Origin: a virus
Taxonomy: Duplodnaviria; Heunggongvirae; Uroviricota; Caudoviricetes
DNA: 10,666 bases
Strand: one strand, 5' to 3'
IMG/VR virus record: IMGVR_UViG_2609459801_000016
In this document: in pieces, positions 1 through 2,915 of the stretch
Numbering within the stretch: the stretch's first letter is position 1
How the letters are laid out: each line of letters begins with the position of its first letter
Position numbers and translations under genes: made by a program
The notes under the pieces: model-generated
Told to the model about the DNA's origin: nothing
The model's database searches: none
What the model saw: only the letters and a program-made list of their open reading frames with translations

Positions 1-1113
1 ATGAATTACTCTCACGATAACTGGTCAGCAATTCTGGCCCATATTGGTAAGCCCGAAGAACTGGATACTTCGGCACGTAATGCCGGGGCTCTACCCCGCC
101 GCCGCGAAATTCGTGATGCTGCAACTCTGCTACGTCTGGGGCTGGCTTACGGCCCCGGGGGGATGTCATTACGTGAAGTCACTGCATGGGCTCAGCTCCA
201 TGACGTTGCAACATTATCTGACGTGGCTCTCCTGAAGCGGCTGCGGAATGCCGCCGACTGGTTTGGCATACTTGCCGCACAAACACTTGCTGTACGCGCC
301 GCAGTTACGGGTTGTACAAGCGGAAAGAGATTGCGTCTTGTCGATGGAACAGCAATCAGTGCGCCCGGGGGCGGCAGCGCTGAATGGCGACTACATATGG
401 GATATGATCCTCATACCTGTCAGTTCACTGATTTTGAGCTAACCGACAGCAGAGACGCTGAACGGCTGGACCGATTTGCGCAAACGGCAGACGAGATACG
501 CATTGCTGACCGGGGATTCGGTTCGCGTCCCGAATGTATCCGCTCACTTGCTTTTGGAGAAGCTGATTATATCGTCCGGGTTCACTGGCGAGGATTGCGC
601 TGGTTAACTGCAGAAGGAATGCGCTTTGACATGATGGGTTTTCTGCGCGGGCTGGATTGCGGTAAGAACGGTGAAACCACTGTAATGATAGGCAATTCAG
701 GTAATAAAAAAGCCGGAGCTCCCTTTCCGGCACGTCTCATTGCCGTATCACTTCCTCCCGAAAAAGCATTAATCAGTAAAACCCGACTGCTCAGCGAGAA
801 TCGTCGAAAAGGACGAGTAGTTCAGGCGGAAACGCTGGAAGCAGCGGGCCATGTGCTATTGCTAACATCATTACCGGAAGATGAATATTCAGCAGAGCAA
901 GTGGCTGATTGTTACCGTCTGCGATGGCAAATTGAACTGGCTTTTAAGCGGCTCAAAAGTTTGCTGCACCTGGATGCTTTGCGTGCAAAGGAACCTGAAC
1001 TCGCGAAAGCGTGGATATTTGCTAATCTACTCGCCGCATTTTTAATTGACGACATAATCCAGCCATCGCTGGATTTCCCCCCCAGAAGTGCCGGATCCGA
1101 AAAGAAGAACTAA
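1..1113 (+). CDS. insL: IS4-family DDE transposase, IS186/IS421-type (InsL-like), 370 aa
   Basis: Uninterrupted 370-codon ORF starting with ATG at window position 1. C-terminal YRLRWQIELAFKRLK matches the Y-2-R-3-E-6-K signature of IS4-family transposases. Length and N-terminus (MNYSHDNW...) match my recollection of E. coli IS186 InsL; not verified by search. Confidence 0.85.
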   Translation: MNYSHDNWSAILAHIGKPEELDTSARNAGALPRRREIRDAATLLRLGLAYGPGGMSLREVTAWAQLHDVATLSDVALLKRLRNAADWFGILAAQTLAVRAAVTGCTSGKRLRLVDGTAISAPGGGSAEWRLHMGYDPHTCQFTDFELTDSRDAERLDRFAQTADEIRIADRGFGSRPECIRSLAFGEADYIVRVHWRGLRWLTAEGMRFDMMGFLRGLDCGKNGETTVMIGNSGNKKAGAPFPARLIAVSLPPEKALISKTRLLSENRRKGRVVQAETLEAAGHVLLLTSLPEDEYSAEQVADCYRLRWQIELAFKRLKSLLHLDALRAKEPELAKAWIFANLLAAFLIDDIIQPSLDFPPRSAGSEKKN

Positions 1114-1283
1114 CTCGTTGTGGAGAATAACAAAAATGGTCATCTGGAGCTTACAGGTGGCCATTCGTGGGACAGTATCCCTGACAGCCTACAAAGCGCA
1201 ATTGAAGAACGCGAGGCATCGTCTTAACGAGGCACCGAGGCGTCGCATTCTTCAGATGGTTCAACCCTTAAGTTAGCGCTTAT
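1..1283 (+). mobile_element. IS186-like insertion sequence, partial (left end lies upstream of the window); right end inferred near 1280-1284
   Basis: Transposase ORF plus about 170 bp of 3' non-coding sequence ending in the palindrome-rich ...CAACCCTTAAGTTAGCGCTTATG (1262-1283), which I recall as the IS186 terminus. It is followed by a G/C-rich flank (GGGGTGCCGGTGGGG), consistent with the known GC-rich target preference of IS186. The other end is not in the window, so inverted repeat and target duplication cannot be confirmed. Confidence 0.55.
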
Positions 1284-1426
1284 GGGGTGCCGGTGGGGTC
1301 GAGATACGTGGTGTTTTCTTTCCCTTCCCAGTAGCCGGTGTAGTGCGTGGCAATAGTGAACGTCCCGGCTCCGGCCAGAACAAGGGCAATCAGCTTTTTA
1401 CGCAGTGGCGCGGGGAGTTTTGGCAT
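1280..1426 (-). pseudogene. 5' fragment (48 codons) of a SAR-type lysozyme endolysin, truncated by the IS insertion
   Basis: ATG at 1426..1424, translation MPKLPAPLRKKLIALVLAGAGTFTIATHYTGYWEGKENTTYLDPTGTP then TAA at 1282..1280 inside the putative IS terminus. Lys-rich N-terminus plus Gly/Ala-rich weakly hydrophobic segment resembles a signal-anchor-release domain. E34-G35...Y41-L42-D43...G46 fits the start of the E-8aa-D-5aa-T catalytic motif of T4-lysozyme-like (GH24) endolysins; the reading frame is cut just before the expected Thr. Confidence 0.5.
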
Positions 1427-1497
1427 TGTTACGCTGTCTCATGGTGTTCTCTGAGCCAGCGTAACCGTGGGAAAAAGGGGGCAGGATTTGCGGAATA

Positions 1498-2567: not shown

Positions 2568-2915
2568 ATGAAAATAGATTACGATGAAGTATTAAGTATT
2601 CTCACAACTTTTCAGGATGCTGAAACACCTTTCCTTACACTACAGGATCTGGGCATGGCTGAGGCAGAAGGAGAGGAAAAGGATAAAAAAGTTTTTCATC
2701 TTATGCTTCTCGCTGATAATGGCTCAATTGTTAATGGTGATATGCAGTCAGAAACACCCAAATATATTGGTTTCTTTTTCCATTCTCTGGGCGTTGGTTT
2801 CAGAAACACGCCCATTATGCTTACCCAGCAGGGGCATGATTTAGCTAACGCCCTGAGAAAAAACCAATCCTTGAAAGAATCAAAAAGGAGTTTACAGACG
2901 CACCATTTGATCTAA
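2568..2915 (+). CDS. Hypothetical 115-aa protein on the opposite strand to the early operon; possibly DUF2513-like
   Basis: ATG at 2568 with AAAGG 7 nt upstream; no competing minus-strand ORF of 60 aa or more. Visibly more AT-rich than the flanking genes. MKIDYDEVLSIL..., FHLMLLADNGSIV and LTQQGHDLANAL loosely resemble the remembered DUF2513 pattern (MKRDxDLIRxIL...HLxLLxEAGLI...LTWxGHDFLD); this assignment is tentative. Confidence 0.55.
   Translation: MKIDYDEVLSILTTFQDAETPFLTLQDLGMAEAEGEEKDKKVFHLMLLADNGSIVNGDMQSETPKYIGFFFHSLGVGFRNTPIMLTQQGHDLANALRKNQSLKESKRSLQTHHLI

Follow-up and report, generated by a model that had tools for sequence, protein, structure and literature searches.

The window analysed here (10,666 nt of a Caudoviricetes genome, IMG/VR record IMGVR_UViG_2609459801_000016) begins with a transposase gene and, on the opposite strand, a short reading frame that looks like the start of a phage endolysin. 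The question raised by this arrangement is whether an insertion sequence has broken the lysis gene of the prophage and, if so, what remains of its ability to leave the host. The original prediction assumed an IS186-like element in the endolysin gene (lys). The coordinates of the features discussed are compiled in Table 1.

Table 1. Features at the IS186/lys junction and in the adjoining late-promoter region of the window.
Feature	Position	Strand	Evidence
IS186 copy A, part within the window	1..1284	+	2 differences in 1319 nt from K-12 IS186A
insL transposase gene, 370 aa, intact, DDE type	1..1113	+	PF01609 DDE_Tnp_1, E 1.6e-26
Right terminal inverted repeat of IS186 copy A, 23 bp, CAACCCTTAAGTTAGCGCTTATG	1262..1284	+	Exact match to the K-12 IS186A terminus
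Truncated endolysin ORF, 48 codons	1280..1426	-	Homology to intact lys; stop supplied by the IS186 end
Right copy of the predicted 10-bp target-site duplication of insertion A, GGGTGCCGGT	1285..1294	+	Exact predicted chimeric protein found
Intergenic region from Mu C-like activator gene to lys, presumed late (Plys-like) promoter region	1427..1497	-	Syntenic with Mu C-Plys-lys
Late-gene activator, Mu C orthologue, 140 aa	1498..1920	-	PF08765 Mor family, E 6.7e-31

The first 1284 positions of the window represent a genuine IS186, a member of the IS4 family with the DDE transposase InsL. When the 35 nt that precede the window in the contig are added, they deviate from IS186A of E. coli K-12 at only two of 1319 positions (99.8% nucleotide identity), namely in one amino-acid change and one non-coding SNP. 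The former (T32P) is the sole substitution in a full-length comparison with K-12 InsL (InsL1), and the expected transposase gene on the strand opposite to lys is borne out by its Pfam match (Tab. 1). Just 27 index blocks contain the exact T32P allele, and most of them are draft assemblies whose accession numbers resemble each other; identical copies carry the PGAP name “IS4-like element IS421 family transposase”. Position 1 is the ATG of the transposase and the far side of the element lies outside the window. IS186 copy A starts 55 bp further upstream, and these are the only bases of it that the window lacks: the source contig covers 35 bp of them, and the first 20 bp are missing from the assembly. 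The contig begins 20 nt into the left copy of the terminal repeat CATAAGCGCTAACTTAAGGGTTG; the final 3 nt of this repeat and the 32 nt next to them are visible and identical to K-12. As reconstructed, the element would comprise 1339 bp with perfect 23-bp inverted repeats. The segment 1114-1283, which had been proposed as IS terminus, indeed matches IS186, but comparison of the repeat with that of K-12 IS186A places the end at 1284 rather than 1283. An Rfam scan of the window gave no match, and its sigma-70 and terminator scans, whose counts were no higher than in shuffled sequences, were not relied on; a terminator-like hairpin within the element (731-712, minus strand) matches the consensus, with a frequency no higher than in shuffles.

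Homology to uninterrupted prophages starts precisely at 1284/1285, the edge of the IS terminal repeat. In the best uninterrupted relative, E. coli AF39 (99.9% identity over the 1.3 kb adjoining the junction), the same ORF runs on to 166 aa and matches Phage_lysozyme (PF00959, E 6.8e-36), whereas the 48-aa remnant alone has no significant PF00959 match, as one would expect of a truncated protein. Codons 1-47 are authentic and proline 48 is recoded from CCC to CCA at the junction. The TAA stop (1282-1280) is provided by the right repeat one codon before the catalytic T49; read outward, the same repeat ends in ATG. The predicted hallmarks of a SAR lysozyme were all recovered in the remnant, i.e., a basic N-terminal tail (MPKLPAPLRKK), a stretch from residue 12 to 33 (LIALVLAGAGTFTIATHYTGYW) without any charged residue and with 50% Gly/Ala/Ser/Thr, and the residues E34 and D43. 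Intact lys encodes the complete catalytic triad E34-X8-D43-X5-T49, of which the remnant lacks T49 together with the whole globular domain. The SAR endolysin R21 of phage 21 (PDB 3HDE; phmmer E 4e-26) can be aligned from residue 5 onward, including the SAR region and E34/D43/T49. By these signatures, intact lys is a SAR GH24 lysozyme of the phage 21 R21/Mu gp22 type with predicted membrane tethering, release and activation, properties of the kind that were addressed for Mu gp22 by fractionation and lysis assays (PMC9239132).

The contig ends in a multicopy repeat and contigs of this assembly run into IS186 by default, which could raise the suspicion that a collapsed IS repeat was wrongly joined to phage DNA. 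Such an assembly chimera is hardly conceivable. Independent assemblies and pipelines (NCBI, ENA, Logan) contain the exact, junction-specific 48-aa product on a total of 54 contigs, corresponding to 79 index blocks, the break falls precisely at the IS terminal repeat, and a reciprocal junction with proper target duplication exists. The IS186/lys junction is thus neither a chance pattern nor an assembly artefact.

The reciprocal junction of this insertion (insertion A) was recovered by predicting the chimeric ORFs for each length of the target-site duplication (TSD), followed by exact-protein look-ups. Only TSDs of 7, 10 and 13 bp put the IS-supplied ATG in frame at site A; lengths of 8, 9, 11, 12 and 14 bp yield no junction-specific product and are hence not separately excluded. 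The 123-aa product for 10 bp, M-TGTP-TICHG...LPKV (P0015 = KEN31270.1), is present in public assemblies, while those for 7 and 13 bp are absent from the protein collection by exact look-up. P0015 stems from strain 7-233-03_S3_C2, which also possesses the 48-aa fragment (KEN22581.1), and it documents the anticipated continuation of the lysozyme frame beyond the element. These look-ups, on which the left junction rests, indicate that insertion A duplicated 10 bp of the intact target, which reads GGGGGTGCCGGTGGGG in the uninterrupted relative; counting the terminal G at 1284, whose assignment is ambiguous, extends the duplication to 11 bp. For comparison, the direct repeats around two reference copies measure 10 bp (K-12 IS186A) and 11 bp. 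In a genome with insertion A only, the far side is predicted to read ...GGGTGCCGGT followed directly by CATAAGCGC.... The missing C-terminal part of lys, used as protein query, retrieved nothing but cluster representatives and unrelated partial proteins at contig ends, and none of these begins at the junction. The predicted left junction with variable TSD had no match in viral, metagenome and species-representative genome collections, and the site-A truncation products of two other lys alleles were absent in exact look-ups.

The insertion itself is real, but the original assumption of a single IS186 copy did not hold for the source strain. Contig JNRZ01000088.1 of the source assembly (GCA_000704965.1; 11,162 bp) starts with the right end of an IS186 that is directly followed by GGTAAAACTCCCC..., corresponding to lys codons 142/143-166. 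Past the 3' end of lys it continues into genes for spanin, DUF2730, portal and capsid proteins, differing from the intact relative at 7 of 8718 nt, and ends inside the late region. By elimination, this assembly probably belongs to E. coli strain 3-073-06_S4_C1 or 3-073-06_S4_C3. The breakpoint (site B) has an 11-bp TSD according to an exact chimeric-protein match; the products for 10, 12 and 13 bp are absent from the protein collection by exact look-up. The middle piece of lys predicted from both insertions is a protein of 103 aa that was found exactly (P0044 = KDU22577.1/KDZ75107.1). In this single molecule the N-terminus bears the junction of insertion A and the C-terminus the stop of insertion B. 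It is located on a contig of 2,984 bp, close to the 2,982 bp that two IS copies with 304 bp between them would give. This contig is predicted to read IS186 (reverse complement), ACCGGCACCC...GGTAAAACTCC, IS186, with GGTAAAACTCC as the site-B duplication. Based on the exact-protein look-ups and the size of the middle contig, on which the middle piece and the left junction of insertion A rest, two IS186 copies in inverted orientation very likely divide lys of the source strain into three pieces. The order would be early genes, lys codons 1-48, IS186 A, lys codons 45-146, IS186 B, lys codons 143-166, spanins and late genes, with IS186 B inserted in opposite orientation to A and 284 bp further into lys, at a perfect GGGG(N7)CCCC and with an 11-bp duplication. 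The window junction, the sister-contig junction and the left junction of site B in both orientations were absent from 5,426 complete E. coli genomes, so that the two-IS architecture is not seen in any finished sequence.

The same contigs could be read differently, with a single insertion A in the window genome and the codon-142 junction contributed by a second prophage copy, each carrying one IS. Mu-like phages transpose, several prophage copies are therefore possible, alleles with only A or only B occur in other genomes, and the short JNRZ01000088.1, which stops in the late region, could reflect a break caused by duplicated prophage sequence. This scenario is nevertheless improbable, given that P0044 joins both junctions on one molecule, sits on a contig of the expected size and originates from strains in which the 48-aa fragment is encoded as well; moreover, the early-region contig (47,974 bp) runs unbroken into host DNA, which speaks against the presence of another, identical early region. 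Even less probable is that IS186 marks the boundary of a deletion or rearrangement, and that the rest of lys and the late genes were lost or moved, leaving a remnant rather than an insertion mutant. IS copies are common substrates of recombination, the window and its contig end inside IS186 with a far side that is not directly visible, and other assemblies with the same InsL allele exhibit rearrangement-like, IS186-associated arrangements around hok genes. Yet the same assembly holds the 3' end of lys, the spanins and the DUF2730, terminase-region, portal, protease and capsid genes with 99.9% identity to the intact relative, and both duplicated target sequences are matched by exact predicted products. 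The preferred explanation is accordingly an insertion mutant, in which a cut-and-paste IS186 (InsL) would have entered the G-rich sequence at codon 48 of the sole endolysin gene of a Mu-like prophage, with a 10-bp target duplication and a truncated product that would keep the membrane anchor and two catalytic residues but lose the fold.

The gene next to lys encodes a late-gene activator that is 40% identical to Mu C across 136 aa (E 2e-37), a context that marks lys as the first of the late genes. An imperfect 24-nt dyad (1418-1441/1452-1475) falls largely into the intergenic region between both genes. A scan of this region for the sigma-70 consensus found no match, as expected for the presumed activator-dependent promoter. 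On JNRZ01000088.1 the fourth gene after lys encodes a DUF2730 protein (PF10805, E 1.2e-22) with 33% identity to Mu gp25. A candidate o-spanin (LysC/Rz1-like PF23793, E 1.5e-11) is preceded by a 116-aa gene with a precomputed DUF2570 match and no Pfam match in our scans. The isolated phage collection contains no close relative, its sole DNA matches being Mu-like inserts within Stx phages.

Only one lysozyme is annotated in the about 38 kb of the intact relative, and extensive screens of nonsense mutants in Mu yielded no lysis gene other than gp22, for which E37A serves as catalytic knockout (PMC9239132). The truncated product is not expected to degrade peptidoglycan, because T49 and the entire fold are lost. 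In agreement with the original expectation for a prophage with a single endolysin, the prophage very probably cannot lyse its host, although endolysins of co-resident prophages may rescue it in trans. As lys is the first gene after the C-like activator, about 3 kb of IS DNA would now lie between the presumed late promoter and the genes for spanins, releasin, terminase and portal, and the insertions probably exert polarity on these genes. The further proposal that a lysis defect would stabilize the early-region cargo in the host is doubtful. The transposition genes A and B and the gene kil have the same lengths as in the intact relative, and induction should hence still kill the cell. Wild-type repressors of the Mu type are not classically SOS-inducible, and a mitomycin C test may thus be uninformative. 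The prophage is therefore best classed as defective in lysis and probably also in packaging, with early-region genes that would be inherited vertically only. The practical effect is small and corresponds to ordinary prophage decay instead of a new kind of system.

The published target of IS186 is GGGG(N6/N7)CCCC (PMC6925257, citing saiSree 2001). Site A (GGGG-N7-GGGG) is a half match to this consensus and site B (GGGG-TAAAACT-CCCC) a full match, the sole motif of this kind in 19.3 kb of the intact prophage (average of 0.67 in shuffles). Genomes with A only, B only and both insertions all exist, and the B-only product occurs in two lys alleles (P0043, P0045). This pattern, which requires at least three insertion events including the B-type truncation in a second allele, could also reflect positive selection for lysis-defective prophages, i.e., domestication beyond target preference, and many other partial lysozyme fragments of this family are found in draft assemblies. 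We regard such selection as unlikely. Most of these fragments probably arose as artefacts at contig ends. Among the 5,426 complete E. coli genomes, about 230 harbor this prophage family and have no IS at site A, and an IS186 junction at A or B is absent from the whole set. Upon induction, a prophage of the Mu type in which A and B are intact remains lethal, and a selective gain from the loss of lysis alone is questionable. Since the perfect target motif lies within lys, mutational bias is sufficient and we infer that target preference explains the recurrence; selection need not be invoked. Slightly less likely still is the stronger proposal that lys represents a recurrent IS186 landing site with selected inactivation, which, if true, would be a repeatable, sequence-programmed route to ground a transposable prophage without silencing its early region, or that the inverted IS186 pair around the 304-bp segment forms a composite or invertible unit. 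Independent of this possibility, the perfect IS186 target in the one endolysin gene that this common family of Mu-like prophages possesses would provide a recurrent and predictable route of inactivation, seen in at least two lys alleles and, in the source strain, twice within the same gene. The approach itself, the search for predicted chimeric ORFs as exact sequences, offers a way to reconstruct IS insertions that interrupt draft assemblies.

IS186A, IS186B and IS186C of E. coli K-12 (IS4 family in ISfinder) have the same 370-aa InsL and the perfect 23-bp terminal repeats that are predicted for the reconstructed element, and IS186 TSDs measure 10-11 bp in G/C-rich targets, as deduced for the lys sites A and B. 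A parallel to the recurrence is the IS186 hot spot at the lon promoter of E. coli B as reported by saiSree et al. (2001, cited in PMC6925257), which is likewise sequence-directed, inactivating and located at GGGG(N6/7)CCCC. The target at lon is a host promoter, whereas lys is a prophage coding sequence with two inverted copies within 284 bp. The SAR endolysins R21 of phage 21 and RrrD of DLP12 (PDB 3HDE/3HDF, 4ZPU) share with lys the GH24 fold family and a homologous N-terminal SAR segment. R21 is only a distant relative and acts under pinholin control, in contrast to the Mu-like lys cassette with its DUF2730 releasin; of the lys product, just the first 48 residues survive in the window. The lysis cassette of phage Mu (C, Plys, gp22 as SAR endolysin, gp23/23.1 as spanins, gp25 as releasin; Chamblee et al. 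2022, PMC9239132) has the same gene order as the window prophage, and both contain a gene for an Rz1-like LysC lipoprotein that overlaps the preceding gene. Along its entire length the lys product shares 40% identity with Mu gp22, with a basic N-terminal tail in both proteins (RKK in lys, KK in gp22). Unlike Mu, the window prophage has no homologues of gp18-20 between gemA and the C-like gene, harbors a TraR/DksA gene in the cassette and carries an endolysin gene that is broken by IS186.

A megablast search of 5,426 complete E. coli genomes places the start of homology to Mu-like prophages exactly at window position 1284/1285. About 230 of these genomes have the region without interruption, and the junction of the window is absent from all of them. 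The window sequence is identical to part of the NCBI draft contig JNRZ01000037.1 (assembly GCA_000704965.1), which reaches 35 nt beyond the window start on the upstream side and then ends. Between the contig start and window position 1284, only two of 1319 positions differ from IS186A of K-12, one resulting in T32P in the transposase InsL and the other being non-coding. Together with the terminal repeat (see table), this identifies the element, which PGAP labels 'IS421 family', as a genuine IS186. Of this element, the window lacks only the first 55 bp and the contig the first 20 bp, which is the usual break of a draft assembly at a repeat. Both IS186 termini (window 1281-1284 and the left end beyond the window) read ...TTATG outward, so every insertion brings in two potential start codons, one at each end.

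Features of the window around the interrupted endolysin gene (lys)
Feature	Position	Strand	Remark
370-aa DDE transposase (InsL)	1-1113	+	PF01609, E 1.6e-26
Terminator-like hairpin	731-712		in IS DNA
23-bp terminal repeat CAACCCTTAAGTTAGCGCTTATG	1262-1284		match to IS186 terminus
Truncated lys ORF	1426->1280	-	codons 1-47 equal to AF39 lysozyme
Imperfect 24-nt inverted repeat	1418-1441 / 1452-1475		79% complementary
Presumed late promoter region	1427-1497		
Strong terminator-like hairpin + T-run	1986-1963	-	between gemA and C-like gene
115-aa gene	2568-2915	+	opposite strand from every neighbouring prophage gene

The best relative is the uninterrupted prophage of E. coli AF39, with 99.9% identity across the 1.3 kb adjoining the junction and 99.3% across all 9.4 kb of prophage in the window. 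In AF39, gemA is followed by a Mor/C-family activator, lysozyme (lys, 166 aa), spanins and further genes. In the window, lys codon 48 is changed from CCC to CCA at the junction and followed by TAA from the IS terminus. The intact protein belongs to Phage_lysozyme (PF00959, E 6.8e-36), and its closest solved structures are the SAR endolysin R21 of phage 21 (3HDE, E 4e-26) and RrrD of DLP12 (4ZPU). The alignment with R21 starts at residue 5 and thus includes the N-terminal SAR segment; residues 12-33 are uncharged with 50% Gly/Ala/Ser/Thr and follow the basic tail MPKLPAPLRKK, and E34/D43/T49 match the catalytic residues of R21. The disruption falls before the third of these, and this prophage type has no other annotated lysozyme gene. 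The original prediction of an IS186 insertion into the endolysin gene is confirmed and its interpretation supported, and the description of the minus-strand ORF as SAR lysozyme-type was right throughout, as documented by the lysozyme family, the R21 alignment and the homology to Mu gp22.

For the far side of this insertion (site A), the gene-caller product beyond the IS was predicted for each possible length of the target-site duplication (TSD) and looked up as an exact protein. A TSD of 10 bp (GGGTGCCGGT) puts the IS-supplied ATG into the reading frame of lys at codon 45, and the corresponding 123-aa protein (M-TGTP-TICHG...LPKV) is present exactly in the protein collection as P0015. This entry, KEN31270.1 of E. 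coli 7-233-03_S3_C2, bears the name 'phage lysozyme family protein' and is recorded on 12 contigs, the longest of 122 kb. Neither of the remaining in-frame TSD lengths (7 and 13 bp) has its product in this collection. The same strain also has the 48-aa fragment KEN22581.1. The lysozyme frame does continue beyond the IS, as the original prediction required, and insertion A is, judged by these exact matches, evidently a simple insertion.

An exact look-up of the InsL allele of the window retrieved JNRZ01000088.1, a further contig of assembly GCA_000704965.1, with the same IS sequence. After the IS it reads ...GCGCTTATG/GGTAAAACTCCCCGG..., in frame on to VKLPGLEARRSADEWLCRYDLPKV and a stop codon, and then runs through spanin, TraR, DUF2730, gp27, portal, MuF, protease and capsid genes with 7 mismatches to AF39 in 8718 nt. 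The right end of this second IS186 is located at lys codon 142 (site B), 284 bp from the first and in opposite orientation. Homologous recombination among IS copies cannot swap the IS end of a flank, and the site-B junction therefore needs its own transposition event. Intact site B (GGGGGTAAAACTCCCC) fully matches the published IS186 target GGGG(N6/N7)CCCC (PMC6925257), and no further motif of this kind occurs in 19.3 kb of intact prophage (shuffles average 0.67). For the middle piece between the two IS ends, only the product predicted with an 11-bp TSD (GGTAAAACTCC) exists, a protein of 103 aa (M-TGTP...KGVKLP and stop) identical to P0044 (KDU22577.1 / KDZ75107.1) from E. coli 3-073-06_S4_C3 and _C1, whose contig comprises 2,984 bp. 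The in-silico reconstruction yields the 48-, 103-, 123- and 146-aa products exactly and 2,982 bp for IS + 304 bp + IS. One of the two 3-073-06_S4 isolates is, by elimination, the source of the window. This exact agreement in sequence and length indicates that lys is split into three pieces in the strain of the window, and the second, inverted IS186 copy at a consensus hot spot is a finding additional to the original prediction. The 123-aa and 103-aa ORFs starting from the IS-supplied ATG at site A are both annotated as 'phage lysozyme family protein'; a Shine-Dalgarno-like sequence was not found ahead of this ATG.

Genomes with insertion B only encode a 146-aa product with an intact N-terminus and a stop at the site-B IS end, which is found with the lys allele of the window (P0043) and in an allele with five residue differences (P0045, WP_071702110.1; 17 contigs). 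The existence of A-only, B-only and A+B genomes thus calls for at least three insertion events, unless recombination is invoked. Exact look-ups for two alleles revealed no site-A products in other lys alleles, and neither insertion is present in any of the 5,426 finished genomes. Selection for the loss of lysis is a possible but unsupported explanation of the recurrence, since the consensus motif of site B suffices for it.

Two further lys variants were observed. P0050 (142 aa, 5.3-Mb contig), called 'lysozyme, partial' by PGAP and belonging to a different allele, stops exactly at the site-B boundary, codon 142 (...RWIYSKG); complete RefSeq genomes harbor no IS186 at this boundary in either orientation. 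In P0011, a 196-aa protein on a 21.9-kb Logan contig, lys residues 1-125 are fused to the C-terminal part of the LysC/Rz1-like protein, implying that another lineage has lost the 3' end of lys together with most of the i-spanin gene by deletion, a different route to the loss of the same cassette. The rare InsL T32P allele also occurs in two other draft assemblies (JNQU01000093.1, 3,194 bp; JNML01000001.1) with another inverted IS186 pair around a hok gene, and one of them shows the order hok-IS186-hok adjoining cysH. This suggests that IS186 is unusually active, or mediates inversions, in this strain group.

Based on the Mu literature, endolysin activity and hence lysis should be lacking. lys comes first after the C-like activator, and genes for the spanins, the releasin, a small-terminase-like protein (gp27), the portal and MuF follow it on the same strand. 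IS DNA of about 3 kb, partly antisense to insL and with a terminator-like hairpin (weak evidence), now separates the presumed late promoter from the spanin-to-MuF genes, and this gene order makes polarity on the packaging genes likely. Mu A (696 aa), B (310 aa), kil and the other early genes equal those of the intact relative in length, and derepression should thus still set off replicative transposition and be lethal to the cell. The proposed stabilization of early-region cargo by the lysis defect accordingly does not follow: horizontal spread would be lost and lethality kept.

The inverted repeat (core GTTACGCTG...CAGCGTAAC) extends over the start codon of lys and the intergenic region that follows the C-like gene; it could represent the binding dyad of the activator or a hairpin in the RNA that covers the ribosome-binding site of lys. 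The hairpin upstream of the C-like gene resembles the early-operon terminator ahead of the Mu middle/late regulator. The 115-aa gene matches DUF2513 only below threshold (23.8 bits, cut-off 29.6) and has no PADLOC match. It is restricted to the six closest relatives, and the homology of other relatives stops near the gemA 5' end, thus indicating a variable, moron-like slot. Beyond the window, the AF39 prophage contains a PGAP 'tRNA-OTHER' between virion-morphogenesis and MuF-like head genes (stretch L001, 1673-1752). At its mom-proximal end (stretch L015, 3733-6832), genes for DUF826, DUF1378 and a 684-aa DUF6645 protein lie between the invertible tail-fibre segment and com/mom and look like accessory cargo of the prophage right end.

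The lysis cassette is syntenic with that of phage Mu: its activator shares 40% identity with Mu C, lys 40% with gp22 over the full length and the downstream DUF2730 protein 33% with the releasin gp25, and it also contains an Rz1-like LysC gene. Mu gp22 is a SAR endolysin, the sole lysis gene recovered from nonsense screens, and depends on gp25; E37A served as its catalytic knockout (Chamblee et al., PMC9239132). The event itself, the inactivation of a prophage gene by an IS, is of a well-understood kind, and both the IS and the endolysin type are known.
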